Positions 1 through 41,278 of a stretch of DNA of 64,000 bases are shown piece by piece. The stretch spans positions 18-64,017 of the forward strand of contig CALJEX010000040.1 of the NCBI GenBank assembly GCA_938074525.1, written 5' to 3'. Source of the stretch: an uncultured Gammaproteobacteria bacterium. Lineage in GTDB: Bacteria; Pseudomonadota; Gammaproteobacteria; UBA4575. The notes under the pieces are model-generated. The model did no database searches and was not told where the DNA came from. It saw nothing but the letters and a program-made list of their open reading frames with translations. Within the stretch, counting starts at the first letter, position 1. Each line of letters starts with the position of its first letter. Both the position numbers and the translations under genes were made by a program.

Positions 1-430
1 CGACATTAGCTGTTAATCCAAATAAATGCACAACAATCACTGCGCGTGTTTTTTCTGAAATTGCATTTTTGATACAAGCAGGATCTATATTTAATGATAT
101 CGGGTCTATATCCGCAAATACCGGCGTTGCTCCGACGTAACGAATAGCTTCGGCCGTTGCTGCAAAAGTATATGAAGGGCAAATGACTTCATCGCCAGGC
201 CCAATGCCCAATGCGCGTAATGCTAAGTGCAAGGCATCAGTGCCGGATGAGCAGCTAACAGAATGTTTAATGTTTAAGTATTGAGAGACTTCATCTTCTA
301 ATGCATGCACATTAGGACCCATGATAAAGGCAGTATTTTCTAGCGTTTCATTTAGTGCGCTTTGGACTTCATCTTTGATTGATTGGTATTGCAGGCGCAA
401 ATCAACCATAGGAATTGCTGTTGAATTCAT
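1..430 (-). CDS. DegT/DnrJ/EryC1/StrS-family PLP-dependent sugar aminotransferase, N-terminal ~143 aa only (C-terminus lies beyond window start)
   Basis: Reverse-complement translation starting at ATG 430..428 reads MNSTAIPMVDLRLQYQ...CSSGTDALHLALRALGIGPGDEVICPSYTFAATAEAIRYVGATPVFADID...KTRAVIVVHLFG, the typical DegT-family N-terminus (ArnB/WbpE/GnnB-like). Not in the supplied ORF track because it runs off the window edge. Lies immediately downstream of the oxidoreductase gene on the same strand. Confidence 0.8.
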   Translation of the reverse strand, partial: MNSTAIPMVDLRLQYQSIKDEVQSALNETLENTAFIMGPNVHALEDEVSQYLNIKHSVSCSSGTDALHLALRALGIGPGDEVICPSYTFAATAEAIRYVGATPVFADIDPISLNIDPACIKNAISEKTRAVIVVHLFGLTANV

Positions 431-435
431 GTTAA

Positions 436-1365
436 TTACTTGGCGTTATGTAGTTGTATTGTGTTGGCGATTTGATTGGCTGTGTGTAGTGCGCGCAAGC
501 CATCAATGCCGGAAACAAGCGGTTGAGTATTGTTAAGAATACAGTCTAGAAAATGAGTGATCTCAGTGAATAGTGCATCTGATTTTTCGAAATTGAAACT
601 TTGCGAATTAATTTCACTATTTTCTCGCGTGTATATTTTTAGATCATGATTTCCAAGGTCAGCAGAAAAATAAGCATTGCCTTGGAACAGCCGCAGTTTG
701 CGTTCACTTTTAGTGCTTACTCGACTGGCGGTGACGTTGGCAACGCAATCATTGGTGAATGTGATTCGGGCGTTGGCGATATCAATATCATCAGAAAGTA
801 CGCTCATTCCTGAGGCTTGAATTGATTCGATGTCAGATTTAACAATACTAAGAATGATGTCGATATCATGAATCATTAAATCAAGGACAACATTGACATC
901 AGTGCCGCGTGCTTTAAAGGGTGATAAGCGTTGAGACTCAATGAACTTGGGTTGCTGCATGTGTTCATCCATTGCAAGCACGGTAGGGTTGAAGCGTTCA
1001 ATATGGCCAATTTGTAGTATGCAATGCTTGTCTTCGGCAATTTTGATTAACTCTTGTGCTTGCTCGGTTGTCGAAGTCATGGGTTTTTCTAGCAGTACAT
1101 GTTTGCCGCGGGATAAAAATTGTTTGGCTATTTCAAAATGTGATGGAGTGGAAGTGACGATGCTAACGGCATCGACATCATCAATTAATGTTTGAAAATC
1201 TGTGCTGGCTTTTGCATCTGGATACAAATTAGCCATTTCCTTAACGGTGGCAGAATCGCTGTCTATCAAGCCCACTAGCTGGCAATTATCCAACGCCGCA
1301 TACTTTTGAGCATGAAATTTACCCAAATAACCCGCACCAATGACCGCTATATTCACAATTCCCAT
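436..1365 (-). CDS. Gfo/Idh/MocA-family NAD(P)-dependent sugar-nucleotide oxidoreductase (GnnA/WbpB-like UDP-sugar 3-dehydrogenase candidate)
   Basis: 309 aa. N-terminal Rossmann motif MGIVNIAVIGAGYLGKFHAQ, with the catalytic EKP motif (VLLEKPM) typical of Gfo/Idh/MocA enzymes. Paired with the DegT aminotransferase downstream. Confidence 0.8.
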   Translation of the reverse strand: MGIVNIAVIGAGYLGKFHAQKYAALDNCQLVGLIDSDSATVKEMANLYPDAKASTDFQTLIDDVDAVSIVTSTPSHFEIAKQFLSRGKHVLLEKPMTSTTEQAQELIKIAEDKHCILQIGHIERFNPTVLAMDEHMQQPKFIESQRLSPFKARGTDVNVVLDLMIHDIDIILSIVKSDIESIQASGMSVLSDDIDIANARITFTNDCVANVTASRVSTKSERKLRLFQGNAYFSADLGNHDLKIYTRENSEINSQSFNFEKSDALFTEITHFLDCILNNTQPLVSGIDGLRALHTANQIANTIQLHNAK

Positions 1366-1510
1366 TCAACTAAAAATCTGTATTATAAAAACCTCGCAGT
1401 ATACGTCCTCTAGCTCAAATGTGGGCCGAAATATGGGCTCAAATATGAGCATCATCGAGTAAAAAAGACTCTTGATTAAAAAGCACTCTAATGTAGTTGA
1501 ATTCGCTGAT

Positions 1511-2086
1511 ATGCAGGTTGATATTAATACCTATGCTGGCATTGATGAAGTAGGGCGTGGACCACTTGCAGGGCCTGTGGTTGCGGCAGCGGTGATACTT
1601 GGAGACGCTCGTGAATGGTTGGGTCTTAAAGATTCAAAGATGTTAACAGCGAAACGACGCGAAGCCTGTGCCATCGAGATTAAGCAAAATGCATCGGCTT
1701 GGGCGATTGGTCGTTGTGAGCCTGAAGAAATTGATCAATACAATATTTTTTATGCGAGTTTGCTGGCCATGAAAAGAGCATTTGAAGGTATATCCCTAGT
1801 GCCAGAATTAGCGCTTGTTGATGGTAAATATAGTCCGGAGCTAGCAGTGCAGTCTTATGCGGTTATAAAAGGTGACCAACATGTGCCTGCCATCAGTGCT
1901 GCTTCTATCTTAGCTAAAGTAACAAGAGATTTAGAAATGTGTGAGTTAGATACATCGTATCCACAATATGGGTTTGCAAAACATAAAGGTTATCCTACTG
2001 CTTTTCATATTGATGCACTCAAACAACATGGTCCATGCATACATCATCGTCGAAGCTTTAAACCAGTTGCCAATGTATTAAAATGA
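1511..2086 (+). CDS. rnhB: Ribonuclease HII
   Basis: Motif [21 protein letters not shown], the RNase HII catalytic DEVGRG. Start chosen at ATG 1511 ([17 protein letters not shown]) because it aligns with the E. coli N-terminus; the track ORF begins at TTG 1472. Stop overlaps the dnaE start (ATGA). Confidence 0.88.
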
Positions 2087-5000
2087 ATCCGCAATTTGTC
2101 CACTTACGTTTGCATAGCGAATTTTCCATTGTTGATGGGCTAGTACGTATTCCTGCTTTGATGCGCAAGGTGTCTGAGCTAGAGATGCCTGCCGTTGCAT
2201 TAACAGATTTCTCAAACTTATTTGCCCTGGTTAAATTTTATCGTGCGGCGATTTCCAATGGTGTGAAGCCGATTATTGGTGCTGATGTATTAATTTCAGA
2301 CCCGCAATTAAAAGAGCGCTATCGAATTGGCTTGCTGTGTATGAATAACTCAGGCTATCGCAATTTAACTGAATTATTGACGCGTGCTTATTTAGAGGGC
2401 CAACATGGTGGTCAACCAACTATCGATCGAAGCTGGATTGATGAGTTTAATCAAGGTTTGATTGTGTTATCGGGTGGGCGTGAAGGTGATTTGGGTAAGC
2501 TGATTTTAAAACAAGACAATACGCGTATCGAGGAATGTATTAACCGGTGGAAGAAGAACTTTTCAGATCGTTTTTATATAGAGTTACAAAGAACAGGTCG
2601 TGAAGGCGAAGACGTTTATAACGAAAGTGCTTTAGACATTGCTGAAAAAAACAATCTTCCCGTCGTTGCGACCAATGATGTTAGATTTTTAACGTCAGCA
2701 GAATATGAAGCACATGAAGTACGTGTTTGTATTAACCAAGGTCGTGTGTTGTCAGATCCTCGACGAGCAAGAACTTATAGCGAACAACAATATTTACGTC
2801 CAGTAGATGAAATGGTGGCGTTATATTCAGATGTGCCGTCGGCAATTTCAAATACGATAGAAATCGCTAAGCGCTGTAATGTGCGATTAGAGTTTGGTAA
2901 AAATGTTTTACCAGAATTCCCTACTGGCGAACTTACAACAGATGAATACTTGCGAGAGCAATCTAAATTGGGATTGCAGAATCGACTGGAAAGAATTAAA
3001 GCGTCACGTGAATCTGTAGATATAGATACCTATGATCAAAGATTAGAAGTGGAGCTTGATGTGATTGAGCGCATGGGTTATCCAGGCTACTTTCTGATTG
3101 TTTCTGATTTTACTAAGTGGGCACGAGAAAATGGTGTGCCAGTGGGTCCGGGTCGTGGTTCTGGTGCAGGTTCGTTAGTTGCCTATGTTTTAGGTATTAC
3201 TGACATTGATCCACTTGAATATGATTTGTTATTTGAGCGTTTCTTAAATCCTGAGCGAGTATCAATGCCCGATTTCGATATCGATTTTTGTATGGCAGGG
3301 CGTGATCGCGTGATTGATTATGTAGCGACACGTTATGGGCGAGAAAAAGTTAGCCAGATCATCACTTACGGCACCATGGCGGCGAAAGCGGTCGTGCGTG
3401 ATGTGGGTCGTGTGCTTGGGCATCCGTATGGGTTTGTCGACCGCATTGCCAAAATGGTGCCTTTTGAAGTTGGCATGACATTGTCTAAAGCGTTAGAGCA
3501 AGAGAAAGACTTCAAGCAAATGGTAGAGGATGAGGAAGAGGTTGGGACTCTCATTGATATGGCGTTACAACTTGAAGGTCTTGCGCGTAATGCTGGCAAG
3601 CATGCAGGGGGTGTGGTGATTGCACCGTCTAAGCTAACCGATTTTACCCCGCTCTATTGTGAAGAAGGCGGCGCTAATGTTGTCACACAGTTAGATAAAG
3701 ATGATGTTGAAGCGATAGGGTTAGTTAAATTCGATTTCTTGGGTTTGCGTACGCTCACAATTATTGATCGCACCCTAGATAAAGTGAATGCGCGTTTAGC
3801 AAAAGATAATAAACCACCGGTGGATTTGAATGCTTTACCACTTGATGATGAAGCTACTTATACCTTGCTGCAAAATCAGCAAACTACTGCGGTATTTCAG
3901 TTGGAGTCTGATGGCCTGAAAGATATTTTAGGTCGCTTGAAACCTGATAAGTTTGAAGACATTGTTGCACTAGTTGCTTTATATCGACCAGGTCCATTGC
4001 AGTCAGGCATGGTAGATGATTTTATTGATCGTAAACACGGTGCATTAGTTGAATACCCTCATCCCGATTTAGAACCGATTCTAAATGAAACCTATGGCGT
4101 TATTTTATATCAAGAACAAGTAATGCAAATTGCCCAAGTTTTGGCAGGTTACTCTTTAGGTGGTGCGGATTTATTACGACGTGCCATGGGTAAAAAGAAA
4201 GCAGAAGAGATGGCAAAACAACGTGCCATTTTTGTTAAAGGCGCGACTGAGCGTAACGTCGAAGATACTAATGCGAACTTCATATTTGATTTAATGGAGA
4301 AGTTTGCAGGCTACGGTTTTAACAAATCACATTCAGTAGCCTACGCCATGCTGTCATACCAAACCGCGTGGTTAAAAGCACATTATCCTGCTGAATTTAT
4401 GGCGTCGGTGCTTTCTGCTGATATGGATAACACTGATAAAGTTGTGCATCTACGCGAAGAATGTAAAACCATGGGTTTAGAAGTTTTGCCTCCTTGCGCT
4501 AATGCTTCTTATTATGGTTTCACCGTGACTGAAGATCAGAAGATTGTTTACGGTTTGGGTGCGATTAAAGGCGTGGGTGAAGCTGCTATTGAATCATTAG
4601 TCAAAGAGCGAGATAAAGAAGGACAGTATAAATCGCTGAATGATTTTTGTATGCGACTAGAAACACAAAAATTTAATCGTCGCAGTATGGAAGCGATGAT
4701 TCGTTCCGGTGGGTTAGATTCATGCGGGCATACGCGTGCAACATTAATGCATCATTTACCAAGAGCGATGCAAACAGCTGAACAACATCATCGTAATGAT
4801 GATATTGGGCAGAACGATATGTTTGGCGGCGGACAAGTCGTTGCGCGTGAAGGGGTGATCGAAGAAAAACCAGAATGGGATGAAGATTCTTTGCTGGCAG
4901 CGGAACGCGAAACACTAGGCTTGTATTTTTCCGGTCATCCTGTGGATCAATATCGAGACGAATTGGTGAGTCTAGCAGGTAAAACACTTAAAGATCATTT

Positions 5001-13326: not shown

Positions 13327-15255
13327 TTGCCAATCGAAAATTATTTCTCCTCAAAAGGAGAACTCGCTCAAAAAATCAAAGGTTTTAAGTATCGTCCTCA
13401 GCAAGTTACGATGGCGAGTGCTGTGCATCAAGCGATTAACGATTCAAGTACCTTAGTGGTTGAAGCAGGCACTGGTGTTGGTAAAACATTCGCGTATCTA
13501 ATTCCCGCGATGTTGTCTGGTAAGAAGGTTGTGGTGTCGACAGGCACACGACACTTGCAAGATCAGCTATTTTATACAGACTTGCCGCTACTGCAGCATG
13601 CAGCCTCGCTCTCTATTAATGCCTCTATCCTCAAAGGCCGCTCAAACTATTTGTGTAAGTACCGCTTTGAACGATTTGAGCATGATCTTGGCGATAATCC
13701 AAGACTGACAAGTGCTTATAGTGAAGTGAAAGATTGGTCGCTTGTCACTAAAACAGGCGATGTTGCCGAAGTGAATGAATTGTCAGAGCAATCTGAAATT
13801 TGGCAGCATGTAACTTCCACGCGCGATAATTGTTTAGGTGGCGAATGCCCAGATTATAATAAGTGTCACGTGCTGAAAGCACGAAAGCGTGCGCAAGAAT
13901 CTGATCTTGTCGTAATTAACCATCATTTATTGTGTGCAGATCTAGTGCTTAAAGGAGAAGGCTTTGGTGAACTGTTGCCAAGTGCCGATGTTTTTGTTCT
14001 GGATGAGGCGCATCAGCTGACGGATGTGCTGCCAAATTTCTTTGGTAGTAATCTTAGTAGTCGCCAGTTGCAAGATTTGGTTGCAGATATTAGTAAGGAA
14101 TGTTCTAAGCTGACGAGTAATATTACATCAATCAGTAAAAGTTATTATGCGGTGCTAGATGTAGTGGAGAAATTTTATAGTAGCGTTGCTAAGAAGATGA
14201 AAGAACAGCGTGAGCTATGGCGCGATGTTATTAGTGATAAAACTGTTCATGCTGCATATGAGAAATTAACATCGTGTCTGCTTGTGTTGGAAGATCAATT
14301 AGCTGCAATAGGAGGAGAATCTCCTGGTTTGGCCCAGTCGTATAAGAGAGTCAGTGAAATTAATGGTTTGTTAGATGAGTTTAAAAGCGTTGATAGCAAA
14401 TTTGTTCAGTGGATAGAGTTAGGTCGAAGACGTTTTCGCTTGGGCAGTGTTCCATTGAATGTGGCAATCCCTTATCAGAAAGCAATTCAAGAATACAAAT
14501 GTGCTTGGATTTATACTTCAGCTACCCTCACGGCTAAGCAAAGCTTTAGTCATTTTACGGAGCAATTAGGTCTACAAGATTCGGAATGCGTTATGTGTGA
14601 TAGCCCATTTGACTATGCAGGACAATCTCGTTTGTATTTGCCCTCAATTAATCTTCAACCAAATGAACAGGGTTATACTGCAGAAGTTGTAAAAAGATCG
14701 ATGCCATTATTGAAAGCGAGTCGAGGAAATGCATTTATGCTATTTACTAGTCATAAGGCATTAAATCAAGCTGCTGATTTGTTGAAAGATAGTGCGTTTA
14801 ATGTATTGGTTCAAGGTGCTGCAGCCAAGCGAGAGCTTTTGAAGCAATTCCAAGAAGCTAGTAATTGCGTGTTGTTAGGTACGCAAAGTTTTTGGGAAGG
14901 TGTAGATGTTAAGGGTCAAGGTCTACGCTTAGTTATCATCGATAAACTGCCGTTTGTTTCTCCAGCTGATCCGCTAGTACGTGCGCGTTCAAAAGCATTA
15001 GAAGAGGCGGGAGAAAATCCATTTATGGTCTACCAAATTCCCCAAGCGATTTTAAATCTTAAGCAAGGGGTGGGGCGTTTAATTCGTGGCGAGCAAGATT
15101 GTGGTGTGGTCGTGCTGATGGATCCTAGGTTAAAATCTAAAGCCTATGGAAAATCATTCTTAAAAAGTTTGCCACCGATGACAATTAGTGAAGACGAAGC
15201 ACAAATCAAACAATTTCTAGATATTATTCATGACAGTGAAACTGCTGGGTATTGA
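13327..15255 (+). CDS. yoaA: DinG-family (Rad3-like, DEAD_2) ATP-dependent DNA helicase, YoaA-type
   Basis: 642 aa. N-terminus GELAQKIKGFKYRPQQVTMASAVHQAI aligns with E. coli YoaA. Walker A AGTGVGKTFAYLIP, a 4-Cys cluster region and a DEAH box (VLDEAHQL). Adjacent to tsaB (yeaZ) as in E. coli. Confidence 0.88.
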   Translation: MPIENYFSSKGELAQKIKGFKYRPQQVTMASAVHQAINDSSTLVVEAGTGVGKTFAYLIPAMLSGKKVVVSTGTRHLQDQLFYTDLPLLQHAASLSINASILKGRSNYLCKYRFERFEHDLGDNPRLTSAYSEVKDWSLVTKTGDVAEVNELSEQSEIWQHVTSTRDNCLGGECPDYNKCHVLKARKRAQESDLVVINHHLLCADLVLKGEGFGELLPSADVFVLDEAHQLTDVLPNFFGSNLSSRQLQDLVADISKECSKLTSNITSISKSYYAVLDVVEKFYSSVAKKMKEQRELWRDVISDKTVHAAYEKLTSCLLVLEDQLAAIGGESPGLAQSYKRVSEINGLLDEFKSVDSKFVQWIELGRRRFRLGSVPLNVAIPYQKAIQEYKCAWIYTSATLTAKQSFSHFTEQLGLQDSECVMCDSPFDYAGQSRLYLPSINLQPNEQGYTAEVVKRSMPLLKASRGNAFMLFTSHKALNQAADLLKDSAFNVLVQGAAAKRELLKQFQEASNCVLLGTQSFWEGVDVKGQGLRLVIIDKLPFVSPADPLVRARSKALEEAGENPFMVYQIPQAILNLKQGVGRLIRGEQDCGVVVLMDPRLKSKAYGKSFLKSLPPMTISEDEAQIKQFLDIIHDSETAGY

Positions 15256-16731: not shown

Positions 16732-18451
16732 TTAGTGTCTCTTTTTTTTCACAATGAAGACATTTTTTTGCAGTTCATTGCCGACATTGGTATTGCGCTT
16801 AATTATTTTAGCTAAAGTTGTTTTCTTGATTTTTCTTAGCTCCTTACCCCAAAAATTGTTTTCATACCAGAATCGATCGCCATCACGTAGTCTTTCAAAC
16901 TGATCTTTAAGAGTAGTGTAAAAAACTTCGCCAACCAAGGCATCGTCTATATGATCTTCTGCTAAACCACCTACCCATAAATCGACATGATCAACACTGT
17001 CGTAAGCATTCTCTAGTCTTGCTTGAACTTCTGGGTTAGACGATATTTCTGAGAATGATACTACTGGCTCTAAGCCTAACTTTTTGCGGGTGTCATTATA
17101 GCTGAGTAGGCCGTGATCACGACCTCTTTGGATATTTAATGAAGCTAAATCAAAGCCACCTTTGCCGGGTTGTCCAAATAAGAAATTCCTAACATCGTCT
17201 ATCACGAATATGTCCAAGTTTTGGCAGGTTTGTGATGCTAAACCTCTTAGTATTGGTCCGATATTGCCTTGTTCTGTTAACAGGTGTGGTGCAAAAAATG
17301 CTTCACGCAGTGAGATGTGTCCATGGCGTGTTTCTTTGCCATTCCGATTTAATCTCATAATTCTTAGTGATAATAAACTATGACCTAAGCGATATGCGGC
17401 AGTAGAGAATTCATTTGCTATGCGGGCATCAACGTCAGGCTTGTAACCCTCGTACTTAGATAAGGCATGTTTGCCTAAAAGGACCGGGATGAATTCATTG
17501 TAAGTAATGACTTGCATTTGCGCTGCAACAATACGTCTGGCGCGTTGATAAATTTCATCACCTGACAGGTGATGATTTTTTTGTTTAATCTTTTTGGCAA
17601 GGCGATTGTGTTCGCGAACAAACAAGGTATGCATAGTAGTTAAGCCTATTTGTTCATTTGCACGCACATCACCCGCTAAAAATAATTTGTCACTACTGCC
17701 GCCGGCATTGCTTAAGCCAGCAGTATTAAAAGGTAGTAACCCTTTTTTACTCGTTTTAAGTTTGCCTCAGCCATTCATTTTACGCAGTTCTATAGCACGA
17801 TCTTCATCGGATCCATATACGTTTGAAGCATCTATCCAGCCTGTGATTTCATTTAACTGTTGTCTGGGGTTGGAGCCGGGTTCATAAATTGACCTATTAA
17901 AACTCATGACGACACTTCCTGAGCTGTCTGGGTCGAACTGCGGGTCCCCGCTAGGAATTAAAATTGGTGCTAATTCTTCGGGACTAACGCCATCTGTAAT
18001 ATCTATATCGTGATCTAGGAATTGACCCCATTGCCATAGAAAATCGCTAGCGTGTTTTTTTGTTTGTGTTGAGTTTGTTTGTGACATGACAGCATTGCTA
18101 ATGTCTCTTGGGTTAGGTCTATCAATGCCTGCCATCGCGCTAGATTGATCGCTGTACCCCGCTTCTGTTGTACGAATCAATTCTATATCGGCAGCATTCA
18201 TTTCATGGTCACTCAGATTGTTATTGCTACCATCAATGGTTCTATAAAATATTTCTGAATGATTTTTTTTTATATTTATTATGATTTCTTTCAATTCTTC
18301 TAACAGGAGATGAATTAGGGTTAGACATGGTGTGATCAGCTTGATTTAGAAGGTCTTCGGTAGGGGAGATTCCTTCTGAACTGTCTGATAATGCGTGCGT
18401 TGCATATATTGATATGCATAGCGCGGCTACGCTTATAGAAATATATTTCAT
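16732..18451 (-). pseudogene. Bacterial animal-type heme peroxidase (peroxidase-cyclooxygenase superfamily), disrupted by a +1 frameshift in an A9 run and an in-frame TGA
   Basis: Three track ORFs (18242..18451, 17767..18294, 16732..17667) concatenate into one protein of about 570 aa. It has a signal peptide MKYISISVAALCISIYATHALS, then RTIDGSNNNL, then the distal heme pocket FLWQWGQFLDHDIDIT. Further on are VDASNVYGS, LLPFNTAGLSNAGGSSDKLFLAGDVRANEQIGLTTMHTLFVREHNRLA, the proximal His in YRLGHSLL, and DLWVGGLAEDH. All are hallmark animal heme peroxidase motifs. Frame change at T9 18263..18271 (A9 on the coding strand). In-frame TGA at 17767..17769. Confidence 0.78.
18263..18271 (-). repeat. 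A9 homopolymer (T9 on the plus strand) at the peroxidase frameshift site
   Basis: With A8 instead of A9 the reading becomes continuous: ...RRIERNHNKYKKNHSEIFYRTIDGSNNNL. Confidence 0.7.
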
Positions 18452-22173: not shown

Positions 22174-22596
22174 TTAGCTAACTTGGTGATGAGTGGGTGT
22201 ATCGCCTTTTTCTTTGTAGAAGCGGAAACGCTCACGCGCTTTTTGTTTCATTGTATCGTCAGGACCTACAACTTCTATCACGCGTTCAAATTGATTATAA
22301 AAATCTGGTGCGTCAGGTGTTAGATTCACCAATAGTTCACGTTGGGTGGGTAGTTGCTCGTGATTTAGGGTAACGGCACATAGCTCATTTTCTGAGCAGA
22401 CTTGCTGGTGGGGAATGAAACTTCGGTCGCGAAACACCCAAAGTAGCTCATCCATTTGCATGGTTAAGCTTTCATTGGGCGTATGGATATGAACATGCAT
22501 ACCTAGTGTGTAAGCTTTCTCAACCAGTCTGCACGCGTACCTCAGCCAAGCGTCAGCTGCGCTATCGTCGACAATATAAAAATCGATTTGTGGCAC
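22174..22596 (-). CDS. holC: DNA polymerase III chi subunit
   Basis: 140 aa. N-terminus MPQIDFYIVDD. pepA-holC-valS synteny as in E. coli. Confidence 0.82.
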   Translation of the reverse strand: MPQIDFYIVDDSAADAWLRYACRLVEKAYTLGMHVHIHTPNESLTMQMDELLWVFRDRSFIPHQQVCSENELCAVTLNHEQLPTQRELLVNLTPDAPDFYNQFERVIEVVGPDDTMKQKARERFRFYKEKGDTPTHHQVS

Positions 22597-27024: not shown

Positions 27025-27948
27025 ATGGCGACTAATGCGGCGAATCAATTAATGGATCAAGATAGTAATATTGTCGAAATGTTTTTGGATAATATTTGGA
27101 TGGAACATGGGCTCAGTGAAAATACATTGAGCGCTTATAGAAACGATCTGTTTAATTTGTTGCGCTGGTTGTCGAGTTTCCAGGTTTCAATATCTGATGT
27201 TAAGCATGAACACTTACTAGATTATTTGGCTCATCGGGTTACCCAAGGAATGCAGCCTAGATCAGGTGCGCGATTGCTTTCAAGTATTCGCCGTTTTTAC
27301 CGCTATCAATTACGCCAAGGTAATGTTGTTGCGGATCCTACAGAAAAAATTGAATTTCCTAAATTGGGTCGATACTTGCCTGAAGTATTAACCGAAGATG
27401 ATGTAGAAATGCTGTTGGCTGCCCCAGATATAACAAAATCCCAAGGCATCCGTGATCGAACAATGTTAGAAGTGCTATATGCATGTGGGCTGCGAGTTTC
27501 TGAGTTGATTAATTTGCAATTACACCAAGTTAATATGCGAACAGGTGTATTAAGGGTGGTTGGGAAAGGCAATAAAGAGCGTTTAGTGCCATTTGGCGAA
27601 CAAGCCGGAGAGTGGCTGGAAAAATATTTTAATGACGCAAGACCCGGGTTGTTAAAAGAAGGTCATGATTGCAATGTGTTATTTGTTTCAAACCGCGGTT
27701 TGGGCATGACGCGGCAGGCATTCTGGCATGTGATTAAAAGACATGCACGCGTAGTCGGAATTGAGAAACACCTTAGTCCTCATACGCTTAGGCATGCTTT
27801 TGCGACTCATTTGTTAAATCATGGAGCGGATTTGAGAGTGGTGCAGATGCTATTAGGGCACAGTGATTTGTCCACCACTCAGGTATATACCCATATCGCT
27901 CAGGCGCGATTACAGGAGTTACATCGGGAACACCACCCTCGCGGCTAA
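27025..27948 (+). CDS. xerD: Site-specific tyrosine recombinase XerD
   Basis: 307 aa, near-colinear with E. coli XerD. Catalytic R...HxxR...Y: LRHAFATHLL, LLGHSDLSTTQVYTH. Confidence 0.93.
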   Translation: MATNAANQLMDQDSNIVEMFLDNIWMEHGLSENTLSAYRNDLFNLLRWLSSFQVSISDVKHEHLLDYLAHRVTQGMQPRSGARLLSSIRRFYRYQLRQGNVVADPTEKIEFPKLGRYLPEVLTEDDVEMLLAAPDITKSQGIRDRTMLEVLYACGLRVSELINLQLHQVNMRTGVLRVVGKGNKERLVPFGEQAGEWLEKYFNDARPGLLKEGHDCNVLFVSNRGLGMTRQAFWHVIKRHARVVGIEKHLSPHTLRHAFATHLLNHGADLRVVQMLLGHSDLSTTQVYTHIAQARLQELHREHHPRG

Positions 27949-28038
27949 TGTTTTGGGATAACTTTGATGTTTTCCCGGTCTAATGATTTAATCCACCAAA
28001 TTTCATTTTAAATTCACTATTTTATACAAGGAAACATC

Positions 28039-28767
28039 ATGTTCAGATGCTTGTCTGTACTCATCATATTGGCTGTAATTTCATTTTCATCGCATGCGGA
28101 TTCTGCGAAACAATCCGAAGCGATCAAAGCAAAATTGGTCGAATCATTCCCTACCCATTCTCCAGATAGTGTTTCCAAATCACCTGTCGAAGGTCTTTAT
28201 GAGGCTGTGTATGGCACACAAATTATCTACGTGACTGAAGATGCAAGATATATCATTCAAGGTGTCGTGATGGATCTTGATGATGGAAAACGAGATATCA
28301 CTGAAGTGGCTTCAAGTCGAGCGCGAAAAAAATTTATGAAGCAGGTTAATGACCAAGAAAAGATAGAATTTGGTTCAGAGAAACCTAAACACACGATTAC
28401 CGTGTTTACAGACATTGACTGTGGCTACTGCCGAAAACTGCATAATGAGATGGATCAATATGCAAGCTATGGAATTAAGATTGATTATCTATTGTTTCCA
28501 CGTAATGGCATTACCTCGCCTAGTTACACTAAAGCGGTGTCTGTTTGGTGTAGTGATGATCGTGCTGATGCTTTAACCAAATCTAAGAATGGACAAGAAT
28601 TGCCTGCAGCGAATTGTGAAAATCCAGTGGCGGCTCATTTCGAGCTCGGACAGAAGATTGGTGTGACTGGAACGCCTGCAGTTTTAACAGCGGATGGGCA
28701 ATTAATGCCAGGCTATTTGCCTGCAAAGCAATTAGCTCAACGCTTAGATGATATGGCGAAGAAGTAA
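28039..28767 (+). CDS. dsbC: Thiol:disulfide interchange protein DsbC
   Basis: 242 aa. Signal peptide, dimerisation domain, thioredoxin CGYC active site. xerD-dsbC synteny. Confidence 0.85.
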   Translation: MFRCLSVLIILAVISFSSHADSAKQSEAIKAKLVESFPTHSPDSVSKSPVEGLYEAVYGTQIIYVTEDARYIIQGVVMDLDDGKRDITEVASSRARKKFMKQVNDQEKIEFGSEKPKHTITVFTDIDCGYCRKLHNEMDQYASYGIKIDYLLFPRNGITSPSYTKAVSVWCSDDRADALTKSKNGQELPAANCENPVAAHFELGQKIGVTGTPAVLTADGQLMPGYLPAKQLAQRLDDMAKK

Positions 28768-28773
28768 TAAAAA

Positions 28774-31700
28774 TTAATTGGTTGGTGTACTATTTATTGG
28801 TACATCAACCAATAATGCAATTTTGGTAAAGACAACTGAGCAGCGTATCGGTAATGAAGGGTAAAGAGGTTGTACTGCGTAGGCATAGCGTTCTAGTTGT
28901 GTTTTAAATTTCTCCGCTTGTTTATGCGCATTTGTTTTTGATATATCTGCTTGTGTTTTGAAATCTATAATCCATACATTCTCTTTGCTTACTATCATTT
29001 GATCGATAACGCTGATTTGATGTTTGTTTGATATGTTGGCAACAGTTACTTCGTGATATGTCTGTTGACTCTCTGTGTGTTTAAATATTGGTTCAAGAGT
29101 AACACTGGTTAAGCAATCTATAGCTTCCTTCTTGAGCGGTTTTAGTTGCTCAATAGTGATATTTGCGTTGGTTTCTAAATTGACCCTATTTAATAATGCC
29201 TGATCATTAATGCTTGGCGACTGAGTTAAAATTTCTAATAACTTGTGAATAAGTGTTCCTTCAAGTGCTTCATTGCTTATCTGCTCAGACGCAGTCACAT
29301 TTGTCGTTGAGTTATTGATAGGTGCGAACAAAGCTGTGTAATCATCTAAAGGCTCGTTGACAGGGAGTGCGGGCGATTTAATGTTGTCTGATAAAGGCAT
29401 AACGTGATGTTCGTGTAGCCATATTTCATCGCTATCTTTTTCAATCTCTAAAGCTGAGCGACATTGAGAGTGCCATCCTTCCTGAGAGCTTCTTTTAGCG
29501 TTCACGCCAGTCATAATGAGAATCTGTTTAGCCCGTGTTAATGCTACATAGAGCAAATTAAGACCTTCATTGCTGGATTGATTGGTTTTATCTTTAAGCT
29601 GTTGAGCCGCATTACTCATAGAGCTCTTTTTGCAACCGAGCATGAAAACATCAGGGATTTCTGAACTAGCAGGCCATTGAGTGATAGCACTAAACTGCTC
29701 GGGTGGTTCGGTGCTTGGGCCACTATCTGCGATAAATACGATGGGTGATTCCAATCCTTTCGAGCCATGTACGGTCATGATTTTAACCGCATTAGTATTT
29801 TCGTTATCGTTGACAAATAATGCTTCAGGATTAGTTTCTTTTATTTTGCGGAGAAATCTAGCGATGCTTGAATATCTGCCGCTTTCTATTTCTAAACTTT
29901 GTTGTAAAAATTGATTGAGGCGAGCGCAGATATGTTGAGATTCTGAATTAGGTATCGCTGCGCGATATCGATCAAGGATATTCCAGCTAGAGAAAATGTA
30001 ATTAAGCAAATCATGAACTGGAATTCGATCAGTAAATTGTTTCCACTCGTGAAGTTTAGTGTTAACGACATGTAGTGGATGGTCTGACTTTGATTCGTTA
30101 CTAAGGATATCTAATTTCTGTTTCCACGTGTCGGCAGTGATTTTTTGCAGCTCAATTAAGTGATATTCATCGATATTGAAAATTGGGCTAGATAACAGAT
30201 GTGTGAATGCTAAATCATCATATGGATCTACTAAGCAAGTTAGTAGCGCAAGCATGTCTTTTATTTCGAGATAGTCTAATAGACGAGTTGCATCGTTCGC
30301 GTGTATCGGGATGGATGCGTTAATTAGTCCTGCTTTAAGTTCGTCTAGGTGGGATCGCGTGCGTGTCAAAATCAAAACATCATCAAACCTGGCGGGGCGT
30401 ATTTGTTCTCCGTCATAGATGGGCGTATTGCTGTCTATTAATTGGCTGATTTCTTGCGCGATCAGTACTCCCTCTTGATAGTGAGCAGTTTCTTCGCTGT
30501 TTTCACGAGACGTCTTTAACGGATGACGAAAATCTTGTTGCTCCTGTTTATCTTCAATCTCAATTAAAGGGTGAATTTTGACAAACCCCCAGCGGTCTTG
30601 GTGCTGATAAGTATGGGCTTGAAAAGAGCAAAATTCTTGGCAAATAGAAGAGTGTGAAAATAACTGGTTAACACAATCGATAATGGCTGGAGATGAACGC
30701 CAAGAATGATCATTAGTTAATAGCTTGCTGTTTAATTCTTGCTGGGACCAATCAGAGGCTAATGTCTGTATTTCTGGGTTGGCACCGCGGAATCGATAGA
30801 TTGACTGTTTGATGTCGCCGACTAAAAACAAACTACTTGTTTGTGATTGGTGTTGATCATAAGAAGATTCTATTAATGGTTTAAGTAACTGCCATTGAAT
30901 AGGGTTGGTGTCTTGAAATTCATCGACTAAGAAGTGGCGAATTCGCTGGCCTAACTTGTATTGCACCCATAATGCATGATCTTCCTGTTGAAGCAATCGA
31001 TAGGTTTCCCATTCTAGGTCGTTAAAGTCAATCACACCGTGTTCAAACTTCATATGCTGATACTGTTGTAAGAGTTCTCGGCCAGCATAAAACCAAGCAT
31101 GATTAGCATTTAATAATTGTGCATGAATTTTGTTATCAACTAGTTGTAAGATTTTCTCAGCAAATGCTTGATGGGTCTGAATGAGAAGTTCAGATTGTTG
31201 TTGGTCAATTAATTTCTGCCAAGCTTTACTGATGGTCAGTTTGCGTGGTTTGTTGTCATTGGTTAAAACTACGGACTGCAAAGCTGATAGGTGAGACTCT
31301 GTAAAATGATTGTGTGAGGATAATAGTGGTTCAATTTTATCAGCCCAGTTTTGATATGTTTTAGCTGGGCTTGTGCGTAGAGTTTGATAATATTGTTTAA
31401 GCAAGGCTAAAAAATCATCGCTTCCAAACCATGATTGATAATCATCGTTTTGTGCAGCACCTATTTTTTTCACCAGCTCGTCGTTAGCAAAAGATACTGC
31501 GTCTTTGGCTTGTTTAGTAAACGCACGCCATTCGCTGCGCGCATTTAAGAAACCAAGTAACGCTGCTTTTGTGCCATTCAGGCCAAAGCAAAAATCAAAT
31601 AAAGTATGCATTGCTTCACGTAATTTAGATTTGCCAGCTTGTTCACTGGTAGATAATAAGCGTTGCCATGCCTGGTTAGCATATATATGGGCGTGTTCTG

Positions 31701-32115
31701 TTAGTTCGAAAGTGGTTGGTAATTCGCTTTCTAGGGGAAATGCGCGAATGATCTCTTTGCAAAATGTATGAAATGTACTAATGCGAATAGTTTGATCTGA
31801 AAATAGAAGTTTTTCATATAGACCTCTAGCTTTTTCAATAGTGTCGCCATTAGCAGTTTCCTTGATGGCAGACAATTCGTCACTTAGTTCGGATTCACTC
31901 ATCACTGACCAAGCTTCAAGCTTATCGAATAATCGAGCACGCATTTCAGCCGCGCTTTTGCGCGTAAAAGTGATTGCCAAGATGTGCTGAGGTTCGGCGC
32001 CTGCTAGTAACAACCGACAGATTCGTGTGATTAGTAACCATGTCTTGCCTGAGCCTGCCGATGCAAACACGTTGGCATTGTGCTGGGGGTGAGTTGATGT
32101 GTCTAAACTAGCCAT
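28774..32115 (-). CDS. UvrD/Rep-family SF1 helicase fused to a C-terminal RecB-family PD-(D/E)xK nuclease (AddA/RecB-like)
   Basis: 1113 aa. Walker A AGSGKTWLL, motif Ia ILAITFTRKSAAEM, helicase motifs throughout. The C-terminal nuclease has VIDQM ... IIDFKTQ ... QLERYAYA (the RecB nuclease D...DxK...QxxxY pattern). No AddB/RecC/RecD-like gene on either side. Confidence 0.8.
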   Translation of the reverse strand: MASLDTSTHPQHNANVFASAGSGKTWLLITRICRLLLAGAEPQHILAITFTRKSAAEMRARLFDKLEAWSVMSESELSDELSAIKETANGDTIEKARGLYEKLLFSDQTIRISTFHTFCKEIIRAFPLESELPTTFELTEHAHIYANQAWQRLLSTSEQAGKSKLREAMHTLFDFCFGLNGTKAALLGFLNARSEWRAFTKQAKDAVSFANDELVKKIGAAQNDDYQSWFGSDDFLALLKQYYQTLRTSPAKTYQNWADKIEPLLSSHNHFTESHLSALQSVVLTNDNKPRKLTISKAWQKLIDQQQSELLIQTHQAFAEKILQLVDNKIHAQLLNANHAWFYAGRELLQQYQHMKFEHGVIDFNDLEWETYRLLQQEDHALWVQYKLGQRIRHFLVDEFQDTNPIQWQLLKPLIESSYDQHQSQTSSLFLVGDIKQSIYRFRGANPEIQTLASDWSQQELNSKLLTNDHSWRSSPAIIDCVNQLFSHSSICQEFCSFQAHTYQHQDRWGFVKIHPLIEIEDKQEQQDFRHPLKTSRENSEETAHYQEGVLIAQEISQLIDSNTPIYDGEQIRPARFDDVLILTRTRSHLDELKAGLINASIPIHANDATRLLDYLEIKDMLALLTCLVDPYDDLAFTHLLSSPIFNIDEYHLIELQKITADTWKQKLDILSNESKSDHPLHVVNTKLHEWKQFTDRIPVHDLLNYIFSSWNILDRYRAAIPNSESQHICARLNQFLQQSLEIESGRYSSIARFLRKIKETNPEALFVNDNENTNAVKIMTVHGSKGLESPIVFIADSGPSTEPPEQFSAITQWPASSEIPDVFMLGCKKSSMSNAAQQLKDKTNQSSNEGLNLLYVALTRAKQILIMTGVNAKRSSQEGWHSQCRSALEIEKDSDEIWLHEHHVMPLSDNIKSPALPVNEPLDDYTALFAPINNSTTNVTASEQISNEALEGTLIHKLLEILTQSPSINDQALLNRVNLETNANITIEQLKPLKKEAIDCLTSVTLEPIFKHTESQQTYHEVTVANISNKHQISVIDQMIVSKENVWIIDFKTQADISKTNAHKQAEKFKTQLERYAYAVQPLYPSLPIRCSVVFTKIALLVDVPINSTPTN

Positions 32116-32210
32116 GATTTGATAAGAAATTTTTGCTGCGTGCCGGTTTCATATAGAATGCGTCTTCTCTAAGCGCTATTGCCCTAACGAATATTTCCTT
32201 TTGATTTTAA

Positions 32211-34100
<1,890 letters not shown>

Positions 34101-34124
34101 CATCTAGATAATCTTGGATTAGTT

Positions 34125-36386
34125 ATGAGTGAAAATATTGAATTTGATTACGGCGATATAGAACGCGTACCGCTACATTCTTTCTCAGAGAAAGCCTACC
34201 TCGACTATTCGATGTATGTCATTCTTGATCGCGCTTTACCACAGATTGGTGATGGTTTGAAACCGGTGCAGCGCAGAATAGTTTATGCTATGTCTGAGTT
34301 GGGGCTATCGGCAACTTCAAAGCCTAAGAAGTCAGCGCGTACTGTCGGTGATGTAATTGGTAAATTTCACCCACATGGTGATTCAGCCTGTTATGAAGCG
34401 ATGGTATTAATGGCGCAGCCATTTTCTTATCGTTATCCCTTAGTGCAGGGGCAGGGGAACTGGGGTTCTACGGACGATCCTAAATCTTTTGCAGCAATGA
34501 GATATACTGAATCTCGATTGACGCCTTATGCAAAATCTTTACTTCAAGAATTGGGTCAAGGCACGGTCGACTGGACGCCAAACTTCGATGGTACCTTGCA
34601 AGAGCCAGTTGTATTGCCTGCACGCTTACCTAATATCTTACTCAATGGTGGTATGGGGATCGCCGTGGGTATGTCGACGGATATTCCTCCTCATAATATT
34701 CGAGAGGTTGTGTCTGCCTGTATTCGATTATTGGACGAACCAAAAGCAACAACGAGTGAATTGTGTGAGCATGTACTTGGCCCTGACTATCCTACCGATG
34801 CAGAAATAATTTCTAATCCAGATGAAATTAAAAACATTTATGAGACCGGTAACGGTCAAGTGCGTATGCGTGCTGTGTACGAACAAGAGACTGACGGAAT
34901 TATTGTTACAGCATTGCCATATCAAGTATCGGGTGCGCGCATATTGGAGCAAATAGCGCAACAAATGAATGCCAAGAAATTGCCAATGGTAGATGACTTG
35001 CGAGATGAATCAGATCATGAGAATCCAGTGCGTCTGGTTATTGTGCCAAGAAGTAACCGTATTGATGTAGAGGCTTTAATGCTGCACTTGTTTGCTAGCA
35101 CCGACTTGGAGCGCACATATCGAGTCAATATGAATGTGATTGGCATTAATGGTCGCCCACAGGTTAAAGATTTGCGCACCTTGCTACAAGAGTGGCTAGA
35201 ATTTAGAACGCACACAGTTACGCGTCGTTTACAGTGGCGCTTAGACAGGGTTAACGAGCGTCTACATATTCTCAAAGGTTTGTTGATTGCCCACCTTAAT
35301 ATCGATGAAATTATTGCCATTATTCGTGAGGAAGATGAGCCTAAGCCTGTGATGATAATGCGCTTCAAGCTGAGTGACATTCAGGCCGAATCTATTCTGG
35401 AAATAAAATTAAGACGACTAGCTAAACTTGAAGAAATTAAAATTAAAGCCGAAACAAAAGAGTTAAGTGAAGAACGAGATAAGTTAGAGAAAATATTGGG
35501 TTCAAAGGCGCGACTTAAAAAATTAATTCGTACTGAATTGTTAGAAGATGCGGAAACTTATGGCGATGAAAGAAGATCTGCCATTGTTAGCCGCGCCACT
35601 GCTCAACAGTTAGATGAAACTCAATTAATGCCTACTGAATTAACCACGGTAATTTTGTCGCAACGTGGCTGGGCGAGGGCAGCGAAAGGGCATGAGGTTG
35701 ATCCAATAGAAATGAATTATAAATCGGGTGATCAATATCAAGCACATGCGTTTGGTAAGAGTAACCAGATGGCAGTATTTTTAGATTCGCAAGGTAAAGC
35801 TTATACATTACCTGCTCATAGTTTACCTTCAGCGCGTGGGCAAGGTGAGTCATTGACGGCACGTTTCAATCCAGCAGATGGCGCCAGTTTTGTTGGTGTC
35901 ATGATTGGCGACCCTGGTAACCTATATTTTCTCGCAACAGATTTTGGCTATGGGTTTGTGTGTAAATTGGAAGACTTGTATTCACGTAATAAGGCCGGTA
36001 AACGTATTTTGAATGTGCCAGATGGGGCAAAAGTCTTACCGCCAGTGTTGGTGCGTTCTCATGAAGAAGACTGGATTGTTGCAGTAGGTTCTGAGGGTTA
36101 TATGTTAGTGACTGAGCTTTCTGAATTTCCGTTAATGTCTAAAGGCAAAGGGATTAAATTTATCAATATACCAAGTGCCAAGCTTAAATCAGGTGAAGAG
36201 AAAGTAGATCATGTTTGTCTTGTACAAGATGGTGAGGCACTCACGTTACACTGCGGTAAGAAACATAAAACTATGAAAGGCAATGAAGTGGATGAATATG
36301 CTGGAGAACGCGGTAGACGCGGTCTCAAGTTGCCTAGAGGTTATCGAGTGGTAGATCGCTTAGATGTAGATTTTTTATCTGACTAA
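34125..36386 (+). CDS. parC: DNA topoisomerase IV subunit A
   Basis: 753 aa. GyrA/ParC N-terminal catalytic Tyr region (AAMRYTE). A short C-terminal domain rather than a GyrA-box one. Paired with parE. Confidence 0.93.
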
Positions 36387-39484: not shown

Positions 39485-41278
39485 TTATTCTTTGCTGAAT
39501 ATTTTTATCACTTCAATATGTGAGAAACAGCTAGTCTTTTCCAATGTTCTTCCCAGCATCACAGTGCGTTGACTGTTAGAGCCTTTAATGTTTATTTCAC
39601 GCGAATCTAAATTTGAATTAGAAGGTAGTAATAAACTATAGCTTTTACTATTCTCAAAAATTCTTTTAAGTAATAGTCCTTGATATTCTAAGTGAGTATT
39701 ATTTTTGTTATATGCGGTCACGCATGCGCACTCAGCGCCAAAAAGTTCTACTCCCACTTTGTGTTCTTTGTTAGGGAGGCCTTGCATCCATCTAATAATG
39801 CCAACACGCCACTGCAGAGTCTCACGACTTTTATTCTCATCGCGAATAGCAATAATCTCACCAACCCGAGTAGTGCAAATACCGTCTGCTTTGTAGTGTA
39901 GACAGAAGCCTCCAGCATTGAAGTTTTCTACTTGCCATTTGTCTAATGAAGCTACGATGCTAGAATATTTTGCTTGGTCTTGTTGATTGACGTCGGCAGC
40001 ATCTTGCATTCCTTTTTGAACAGCAAATGGATTCCATACATCGCTTAATGTTTCATTAGCTGAAGCTTGGCTTAATGTTTTAGGCGAGCTGGCATTGATG
40101 GTTTCTTCCACTGGTAATAAGGAAAGGCTATTGACCACAAACGAACTCTGATCAGCATAATCGACAGTGTCCTCTGGTTTTGGATTCATTGTTTCTACTA
40201 TGCGCGATAGGCCAATAATCGCACGCACGACTTGGTCGCTTTTGATTCTTTTTTTATGGCGCTGACTTGGGTTGCCAATCATAGTGATTAAACGGCCCGC
40301 TAGTTCAGGATCTAATTCTTCGTTTGACTGTAAATAATAAGAAGTGCTTTGAGCAAACTTCTTGGTTGATTCTGCAAGTTTGCTAACTAATGCCGCGTAA
40401 CCGATAAAGCGATTCTCAGTGGAGATAGGCATTTCTCTGGGAATATAATATGTTGGGTGCTTGCCGGTGGCGAGATTGGCAATATAGATATACTCACCGC
40501 TTAAACTGTCTGTATTAGGTGTGATATCAATTAACTCATGATGCATTTCAAGGAACTTGTTTACTTTGTCGGCCTCACCTTGGCGTAATTGGTTAAATGA
40601 TATTAATGTGAGTGCGCAAAGGTGCTTGAATATATTGATAATCGTGGTTTTTTCTTTTGTTCCGTCTGTGCTGATGAATGCGGTGTGCAATCCATAGTGT
40701 TCTGCTACTCTGTATAGCTGGCAAATGTCATGCCATAGACTTTTAGGTATTTCTTGGTACATTAATAAACTTGCAACATACTGATGTTGCAGATGTGAAA
40801 TAGCATTGTATATGCAATGGAGTAATTTCTTTTGGTCTAGCCTTGCATCGCCTTGTACTACTTCCGATATGATAATCTTGAATGCGATAGCAAGCTCGGA
40901 ATTCATGTTTTGTTGCAGCTGAAATATCTCGGTAGCACTTGGTGACAGCGGGAATGTTTGGCAAGCTAAGTATCTGCGATGATGGTCAAGAAATGTTTTT
41001 GATAATGGTAGTAACAACTCTATTGAAGCAAATCTTTGTTTAACAGGATATGACTGCCGATTACTAGCAGCGATTAACTGGAAGGTTTGTTTGCTCGCGG
41101 TGTCAAGATTGATCATGGGTAACTCTTTGATCCACTTCTTAACTTGGCGCGGGGTAAATGCAATATCCGGCTGTGCCAACGGATCTTGTGTAGGCATATA
41201 GATTTGCATGTCCAATAACATCGAAATAGTTCCCTGCGTGTTTAAATTTTCAACTTTAGATTCTAAAACTTGTACCAA
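39485..41278 (-). CDS. Hypothetical 597-aa soluble protein, no recognisable family; encoded 36 nt upstream of the FimX-like gene
   Basis: Long uninterrupted ORF with typical codon usage and its own AT-rich upstream region (41279..41436). No TM helices, P-loop or metal motifs seen. The C-terminal ~120 aa is beta-rich, with NFNAGG only partly resembling the PilZ (D/N)xSxxG element; no RxxxR. Confidence 0.6.
   Translation of the reverse strand: MVQVLESKVENLNTQGTISMLLDMQIYMPTQDPLAQPDIAFTPRQVKKWIKELPMINLDTASKQTFQLIAASNRQSYPVKQRFASIELLLPLSKTFLDHHRRYLACQTFPLSPSATEIFQLQQNMNSELAIAFKIIISEVVQGDARLDQKKLLHCIYNAISHLQHQYVASLLMYQEIPKSLWHDICQLYRVAEHYGLHTAFISTDGTKEKTTIINIFKHLCALTLISFNQLRQGEADKVNKFLEMHHELIDITPNTDSLSGEYIYIANLATGKHPTYYIPREMPISTENRFIGYAALVSKLAESTKKFAQSTSYYLQSNEELDPELAGRLITMIGNPSQRHKKRIKSDQVVRAIIGLSRIVETMNPKPEDTVDYADQSSFVVNSLSLLPVEETINASSPKTLSQASANETLSDVWNPFAVQKGMQDAADVNQQDQAKYSSIVASLDKWQVENFNAGGFCLHYKADGICTTRVGEIIAIRDENKSRETLQWRVGIIRWMQGLPNKEHKVGVELFGAECACVTAYNKNNTHLEYQGLLLKRIFENSKSYSLLLPSNSNLDSREINIKGSNSQRTVMLGRTLEKTSCFSHIEVIKIFSKE

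Follow-up and report, generated by a model that had tools for sequence, protein, structure and literature searches.

A gammaproteobacterial AddA-type helicase-nuclease gene without an adjoining addB, and the probable location of its partner

When a helicase-nuclease of the kind that processes broken DNA ends is encoded with no partner gene beside it, does the enzyme work alone? The question is raised by 64,000 nucleotides of contig CALJEX010000040.1 (assembly GCA_938074525.1), from an uncultured Gammaproteobacteria bacterium. This whole stretch is called the window below, and positions are counted from its first letter. In an initial annotation of the window, one open reading frame (ORF) was presented as an orphan AddA/RecB-like helicase-nuclease, lacking AddB, RecC and RecD. 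We find that the protein is quite probably the AddA of an AddAB-type enzyme whose addB gene lies unlinked elsewhere in the same genome.

The ORF was confirmed as annotated, on the minus strand, and its parts are given here one per line (aa, amino acids).

28774-32115, minus strand: addA, encoding the AddA-type helicase-nuclease (1113-aa ORF, ATG start)
29497-32097, minus strand: UvrD-like helicase motor of superfamily 1A (SF1A), aa 7-873 (Pfam UvrD-helicase 9.8e-49, UvrD_C 3.4e-28)
32041-32058, minus strand: helicase motif I, AGSGKT
31942-31971, minus strand: helicase motif Ia, TFTRKSAAEM, aa 49-58
30904-30927, minus strand: helicase motif II, VDEFQDTN
30781-30822, minus strand: helicase motif III, VGDIKQSIYRFRGA
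29749-29775, minus strand: helicase motif V, TVHGSKGLE
29527-29547, minus strand: helicase motif VI, VALTRAK
29275-29373, minus strand: motor-nuclease linker, aa 915-947, of low confidence (predicted local distance difference test, pLDDT, < 50)
28801-29274, minus strand: C-terminal RecB-family PD-(D/E)xK nuclease domain, aa 948-1105, with conserved catalytic residues

All the SF1A motifs listed were aligned with those of AddA (3U44_A) and PcrA and are intact. In the nuclease domain, H957, E1022, D1038, D1051, K1053, Q1073 and Y1077 do not vary among 52 aligned homologs, down to 33% identity, and the same seven residues are at least 90% conserved across 115 aligned homologs. The fusion of a UvrD-type motor with a RecB-family nuclease, proposed from a few short motifs, thus holds, and those motifs were located at aa 21-25 (GSGKT), 49-58 (TFTRKSAAEM), 1036-1040 (VIDQM), 1049-1055 (IIDFKTQ) and 1073-1080 (QLERYAYA).

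The top NCBIfam match is the AddA model TIGR02784 (addA_alphas) with 581.5 bits and an E-value of 5e-174. The match spans profile positions 6-1136 of 1138, the nuclease domain included. The Gram-positive AddA model TIGR02785 reaches 314.8 bits (cutoff 707.65), the model PRK13909, of the NCBIfam 'RecB-like helicase' type, 274.5 bits and PRK10876 100.2 bits (cutoff 1697).

The best PDB sequence match is B. subtilis AddA (2e-46). An AlphaFold model of the protein has a mean pLDDT of 83.6, with residues 915-947 as the sole long stretch of low confidence. When this model was compared with known structures by Foldseek, ranks 1-4 were all chain A of B. subtilis AddAB, matched over the full length with E-values from 1e-42 to 2e-39 and a template modelling (TM) score of about 0.55; the top chains 4CEH_A, 4CEJ_A and 3U44_A each have E about 1e-42. 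Next in order came RecB (E 4e-36 or weaker), then UvrD, PcrA and Rep (motor only), and then AdnAB. AddA is therefore the closest family both by sequence profile and by predicted fold.

The ratio of nonsynonymous to synonymous substitution rates (dN/dS) of addA against the orthologue in a close relative (L001, 80% amino acid identity) is about 0.08, an approximate value as dS is near saturation. In the same comparison the neighbouring dsbC-type gene gave 0.10 and parE 0.02. We predict that the window gene encodes a functional AddA-type helicase-nuclease under purifying selection, and this selection argues for function whatever the partner status. The window protein belongs, as a gammaproteobacterial member, to the known proteobacterial AddA family. 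Of what is expected from an AddA it lacks only a score above the curated cutoff and an adjoining addB, the latter being usual but not universal.

The homologs of the window AddA form three groups which are roughly equidistant from each other, at about 35% identity. The window's own clade, here X1, has 68 members among the top matches listed, with 41-100% identity to the window AddA. The second group, X2, contains P0069, P0072, P0086, P0105 and P0117, and the third group, Y, contains P0084 and many others. X1 and X2 have a common gene order of parC-parE / addA / dsbC-xerD-RDD-lptG-lptF-pepA-holC-valS (L001, L002, L003), and the deepest branch of X1 (L172, 42% identity) has the same layout apart from lptG-lptF. 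In each of the five X1 and X2 loci examined, parE diverges from addA and no addB adjoins addA. The position of the gene between parC-parE and dsbC-xerD is thus conserved across two deep clades. AddA evolves fast in these lineages, as 94% identity in ParE corresponds to about 80% in AddA, and 82% in ParE to about 45% in AddA.

In the Y clade the partner is found where it is usually expected. A PDDEXK_1 protein of about 900-1000 aa is encoded directly upstream of the AddA homolog (L004, L090), and its best family is the AddB model TIGR02786, below cutoff. The AddB of L004 was used as a probe, and a profile of 16 AddB sequences then led to P0399, an AddB-type protein of 963 aa with a PDDEXK_1 domain and TIGR02786 as its best family. 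A profile of X2 AddB sequences led in turn to P0457. Both genes lie on a chromosome that also carries an X2 addA. On contig ctg394315 of ERZ25070167 (European Nucleotide Archive, ENA; 2,409,838 bp), the addB of P0399 is at ~575.0-577.9 kb and the addA of P0086 at ~1306.9-1310.3 kb, a distance of 729 kb. On contig ctg495697 of ERZ26167216, the addB of P0457 is at ~1739.5-1742.3 kb and the addA of P0072 at ~2545.6-2549.0 kb, a distance of 803 kb. Both X2 addB genes stand immediately 3' of a gene for a 107-aa ferredoxin, fdxA, and beside mutS and recA. The AddB hallmarks are kept in the two proteins, namely GW-x-L-x-TTS, CPYQ-x-F, GRxDR, DYKTG, GE-x2-QL-x2-Y and the C-terminal C-x2-C-x5-C.

The orphan claim of the initial annotation is consequently unsupported, with AddA as the closest family and with a canonical AddB encoded at these distances in relatives of the same layout. 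An addB partner found elsewhere had been named there as a finding that would overturn the claim; such a partner is present in the two related complete chromosomes, though this does not strictly apply to the window's own genome.

The unlinked proteins also diverge together. Between three X2 lineages the AddA identities are 0.48, 0.45 and 0.47 and the AddB identities 0.48, 0.44 and 0.44, where the third lineage (AddA P0069, AddB P0382) was paired by its matching distances and not on one contig. Judged from these sequences, unlinked AddA and AddB co-diverge in X2, as expected for partners.

All AddA and AddB proteins checked (P0001, P0084, P0137, P0399, P0457, P0475, P0483) score below the curated cutoffs, with 581-650 bits for AddA (cutoff 860.75) and 108-193 bits for AddB (cutoff 486.5). 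The source names seen are generic, such as 'UvrD-helicase domain-containing protein' and 'PD-(D/E)XK nuclease family protein'. Such sub-cutoff scores in this gammaproteobacterial radiation are an annotation gap rather than a biological oddity. Two side observations were made among the related loci. In a 2.11-Mb genome that carries the AddB P0483 (L008, 219-1681, minus strand), the dnaB call consists of two ORFs (187 and 300 aa) that overlap, probably due to a frameshift or an assembly error in a long-read metagenome-assembled genome. Furthermore, a full-length AddA homolog with 35% identity over residues 3-1103 lies at the very end of a 40-kb contig of a viral collection (L010, IMGVR_UViG_3300005056_000227, 1-4504); rather than a phage AddA, this may represent DNA of a host or a contig that was misclassified.

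How AddA came to stand beside dsbC and xerD can be read from the AddB loci. We scored 166 AddB loci from GTDB genomes and Joint Genome Institute (JGI) metagenomes. The addA gene adjoins addB in 80 of them, while in 53 others no addA follows within downstream sequence of at least 1.5 kb. The fdxA gene is directly upstream of addB in 60/70 linked and 30/45 unlinked loci. In 34 linked loci the sequence extends 2.5 kb or more past addA; a dsbC-like gene comes after addA in 24 of these, and a xerD-like gene in 19. In L090, from clade Y, fdxA-addB-addA is followed by a xerD-like gene, and in L004 addB-addA is followed by dsbC and xerD. An unlinked addB is a common finding: besides X2, the lineages X3 (P0483, L008), Z (the P0475 group, L091) and W (the L104 group) carry addB without an adjacent addA. 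The simplest reading is that a block fdxA-addB-addA...dsbC-xerD is ancestral and was broken between addB and addA.

The motif RKLxRRLR is enriched in the split lineages; as a motif specific to them it was dropped, since it is not exclusive to these lineages. The 107-aa ferredoxin (DUF3470 type, 7Fe-type) is tightly associated with addB in linked and unlinked lineages alike, for example at L007 7670-10892, L008 9639-12751, L009 5655-8871 and L090 8612-15691. It may be added that addB here adjoins the gene of a 7Fe-type ferredoxin and that AddB is the Fe-S-containing subunit in B. subtilis AddAB.

The window would hold one side of the break, and the genes around addA are as follows.

27025-27948, plus strand: xerD (TIGR02225, 385.6 bits, above cutoff)
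28039-28767, plus strand: dsbC-type gene (Pfam DsbC_N and Thioredoxin_2; NF008129 183.8 bits, below the cutoff of 215)
27025-28767, plus strand: xerD and the dsbC-type gene together, the putative downstream half of the ancestral addB-addA...dsbC-xerD block
32116-32213, no strand: spacer of 98 bp between the divergent addA and parE genes, with promoters presumed and its function inferred
32214-34100, plus strand: parE (TIGR01055, 984 bits)
34125-36386, plus strand: parC (TIGR01062, 1056 bits)
32214-36386, plus strand: parE-parC (topoisomerase IV), in the slot held by addB in linked relatives and on the putative breakpoint side

The dsbC-type gene is convergent with addA, and its stop codon TAA is separated from the addA stop by 6 nt (TAAAAA, 28768-28773). 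No intrinsic-terminator-like hairpin was found in the 4 kb around this convergent pair (28400-32400), where 2.5 were expected from shuffled sequence. On the other side parE is divergent from addA across the 98-bp spacer and is followed by parC. The spacer contains no LexA box of the form CTGT-N8-ACAG, and promoter-like matches around it are no more common than in shuffled sequence.

Neither flank encodes a partner, as was initially reported, and the same is true for the rest of the window as far as it was scanned. No AddB-, RecC- or RecD-like protein was found among the window ORFs from 469 aa upwards, a scan that was complete for ORFs of at least 563 aa. The large ORFs are DnaE, ValS, FimV, YoaA, a GGDEF-EAL protein, PyrG, PurF, LeuC, PepA and one 597-aa protein of no family. 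Additionally, a six-frame tblastn search with six diverse AddB proteins gave no match in the window or in three related loci.

The initial annotation also pointed out that the gene after xerD-dsbC is recJ in E. coli, so that a different DNA-end-processing enzyme occupies the slot. The position is correct. A replacement of recJ is not needed, because the break of the ancestral block explains an AddA beside xerD-dsbC. In E. coli K-12, moreover, xerD, dsbC and recJ are all co-directional, while the helicase-nuclease gene in the window is convergent with dsbC.

The events and the enzyme mechanism that we propose are as follows. An old chromosome rearrangement would have split the block between addB and addA. 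After the break, addB would have stayed with fdxA, and addA with dsbC-xerD, which is the half present in the window. The window's genome should then carry an unlinked and fast-diverging addB elsewhere. By analogy with B. subtilis AddAB, an AddA-AddB heterodimer would bind a duplex DNA end, and the single motor of AddA would move 3'-to-5' and unwind the duplex. The AddA nuclease would cleave the 3'-ended strand and the AddB nuclease the 5'-ended strand, until Chi is recognised by the inactivated helicase-like domain of AddB and cutting of the 3' strand is attenuated. The result would be a 3' single-stranded tail for RecA. The AddAB structural paper describes AddA as a helicase core joined to a nuclease of the RecB family. 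AddB, as described there, has a helicase-like domain that is inactivated and recognises Chi, and a nuclease containing a 4Fe-4S cluster.

Several points weigh against this assignment. The TIGR02784 score of the window AddA is well under the curated cutoff of 860.75. The Pfam domain PDDEXK_1 is recorded for many homologs and is not found in the window protein at E<=0.01. Thus, the classification by hidden Markov models (HMM), which had been suggested as a check, gave AddA as the best family over the full length but no PDDEXK_1, and because of this miss the nuclease call rests on the conserved catalytic residues and on the full-length match to the AddA model. The mechanism is carried over from B. 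subtilis AddAB, with which the structural alignment shows about 18% identity. Finally, no AddB from X1 is among the AddB matches listed in any of our searches, and this includes four complete X1 chromosomes (2,158,385, 2,402,513, 2,725,066 and 1,476,849 bp).

How much this absence says depends on the searches. Word-indexed searches (5-mer prefilter) gave the best 120 matches and have poor recall near 30% identity, searches of cluster representatives gave the best 150, and the genome and metagenome scans used two peptide patterns and gave the best 80. When a set of 5.8 billion proteins was searched with the L004 AddB, the best 120 matches were all close relatives of the probe. The 16-sequence AddB profile against representatives at 50% identity matched 1,698 clusters at E<=1e-30, and the X2 AddB ranked 149 among the best 150. 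The contigs of low-GC (guanine plus cytosine) representatives were inspected; P0399 was found in this way on the chromosome of P0086, and no X1 chromosome was found. The X2 AddB profile gave 84 matches, including the second X2 chromosome and the divergent lineage X3 and none from X1. Outside its own clade, where the family has thousands of members, this search retrieved about 25.

The GTDB genomes were scanned with an alignment of the Z clade, again with no X1 match, but the patterns used (DLLKSPFF[CS] and [LV]I[DN]CPYxFF) miss the confirmed X2 AddBs too. Scanning JGI metagenomes with an X2 alignment gave six X2-type loci, the rest being of Y or Z type, and no new low-GC clade. No AddB locus reached a tetranucleotide signature similarity of 0.9 with the window, where controls from the same genome gave 0.90 and the window against L001 0.94; X1 and X2 are inseparable by these signatures at 0.80-0.89. 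The Z and W clades are unlikely to be the AddB of X1, as their motifs are those of the scan patterns and X1 is yet absent, and their signatures are more distant.

The absence of X1 from the AddB listings is weak evidence, because the listings hold best-N matches, recall is poor near 30% identity and the patterns of the GTDB scan miss X2 AddBs. Moreover, AddB diverges as fast as AddA, and among the AddA branches X1 has diverged most (581 bits to TIGR02784, compared with 650 for a linked relative), so that an X1 AddB is expected below the listing cut-offs.

The same absence and the same divergence of the X1 AddA are what a true orphan would lead one to expect. X1 would then have lost addB after the split, leaving AddA to act by itself, in a homo-oligomer or together with a partner that is not homologous to AddB. 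Both same-synteny relatives that were checked encode an unlinked AddB, and given the low recall of the searches and the expected rank of an X1 AddB we regard a true orphan as improbable. It is just as doubtful that the whole of X1, with at least 68 protein clusters and four complete chromosomes of 1.5-2.7 Mb, lost addB while keeping a constrained AddA with both activities predicted intact. If it did, DNA ends would be resected in nature by a single-chain helicase-nuclease, or by one that works with a non-homologous protein.

A second alternative would make the protein a RecB whose RecBCD partners are encoded by recC and recD genes at other places of the genome. In its favour, the overall architecture is shared, RecB comes second among the structural matches and the recB model TIGR00609 gives 225.7 bits. 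This score is far under the cutoff of 696.05 and under that of AddA, the match covers residues 18-879 and stops before the nuclease, every RecB structure ranks below the AddA structures, and the relatives pair with AddB-type proteins and not with RecC. A RecB assignment is thus highly unlikely.

The remaining alternatives can be given almost no weight. An anti-phage defence helicase-nuclease, for example one related to GajB of Gabija or another UvrD-like defence protein, would account for the PADLOC GajB models that match the motor region and for GajB chains among the weak PDB sequence matches; the best of the model matches has 150 bits, about a quarter of the AddA score, and covers generic UvrD motifs only. 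No GajA or other defence gene is near addA, the GC content has no island signature, and the neighbourhood is a housekeeping one across deep clades (parEC, xerD, dsbC, lptFG, pepA, valS). Gabija GajB itself, with about 500-600 aa and its place beside GajA, was rejected on its partial matches to the motor region, of at most 150 bits, and on the housekeeping neighbours. One subunit of an AdnAB-like enzyme, which has two motor-nuclease subunits, is equally implausible: AdnB and AdnA chains match the structure distantly (E 1e-21 to 1e-16) and far less well than AddA or RecB do, the window carries no other UvrD-nuclease gene, and the partners of relatives are AddB-type proteins without helicase motifs and with the terminal cysteine motif. 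A stand-alone UvrD, PcrA or Rep helicase (about 650-750 aa, nuclease-free) is ruled out by the length of 1113 aa, the nuclease domain and the sub-cutoff scores to pcrA (186.8, cutoff 911), uvrD (168.8, cutoff 1144) and rep (146.1, cutoff 951).

Some other features of the window were recorded. At 16732-18294 on the minus strand two ORFs make up an animal-type haem peroxidase (PF03098); 17767-18294 covers profile positions 1-174 and 16732-17667 positions 216-530. The GC content is lower here (0.36-0.40), and a TsaB-like gene and a LysE exporter stand on either side. The peroxidase looks like a eukaryote-like gene that is disrupted or frameshifted and possibly acquired. The 597-aa ORF at 39485-41278 (minus strand) has no Pfam or NCBIfam match and adjoins the GGDEF-EAL gene; it is probably a divergent FimW-like protein, as PF27104 (FimW_N) is present in its positional counterparts in L002 and L003. 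YoaA, a DinG-family repair helicase, is encoded at 13327-15255 on the plus strand (800.7 bits, above cutoff). An ORF of 140 aa at 22174-22596 (minus strand) lies between pepA and valS, where relatives have holC, the gene for DNA polymerase III chi. In E. coli, YoaA binds chi.

The lack of a partner gene in the flanks does not show that an enzyme is an orphan. When AddA and AddB are unlinked, score below the cutoffs and carry generic names, a double-strand-break resection system is easily overlooked in genome surveys, and the reconstructed history of the block may help the annotation of these mostly uncultured lineages. Should addB really be absent from the window's clade, that clade would offer a natural test of how AddA functions without AddB.

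Among known systems the closest by structure is B. subtilis AddA (PDB 3U44/3U4Q, 4CEH, 4CEI, 4CEJ). Like the window AddA it has an SF1A motor (1A/1B/2A/2B), a linker and a C-terminal RecB-family nuclease, the catalytic motifs are common to both, and it is the best full-length structural match. The initial annotation regarded single-chain fusions of this size as poorly characterised in gammaproteobacteria, while AddAB enzymes in fact have solved structures. B. subtilis AddA and the window AddA differ in sequence to the degree given above, and the latter is shorter by about 120 residues. The addB and addA genes of B. subtilis adjoin each other, whereas the window addA has no addB beside it.

The profile closest to the window AddA from end to end is that of proteobacterial AddA (TIGR02784), for which the AddAB of Rhizobium etli is an example (PMC1193525). 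The partners of relatives best match the corresponding AddB model, TIGR02786. The differences are the sub-cutoff scores on both the AddA and the AddB side, and that the window AddA is a gammaproteobacterial branch which is unlinked from addB.

The H. pylori AddA (HP1553) is, like the window AddA, a UvrD-nuclease protein without an adjacent partner. HP1553 was at first misread in a similar way, since a description from 2008 took it for a lone RecB-like remnant of poor conservation, lacking both RecC and RecD (PMC2475510). It belongs to another proteobacterial class, and the similarity of the window AddA to PRK13909 is sub-threshold. Amundsen et al. 2008 reportedly found later that HP1553 is an AddA that works with an unlinked AddB.

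E. coli RecB, the second-best structural match, shares with the window AddA the motor and the RecB-family nuclease, and it has the same cellular job, the resection of double-strand breaks which prepares the end for RecA. RecB differs in its partners, which are RecC and RecD, the latter a second motor, whereas the relatives of the window protein pair with AddB, a second nuclease.

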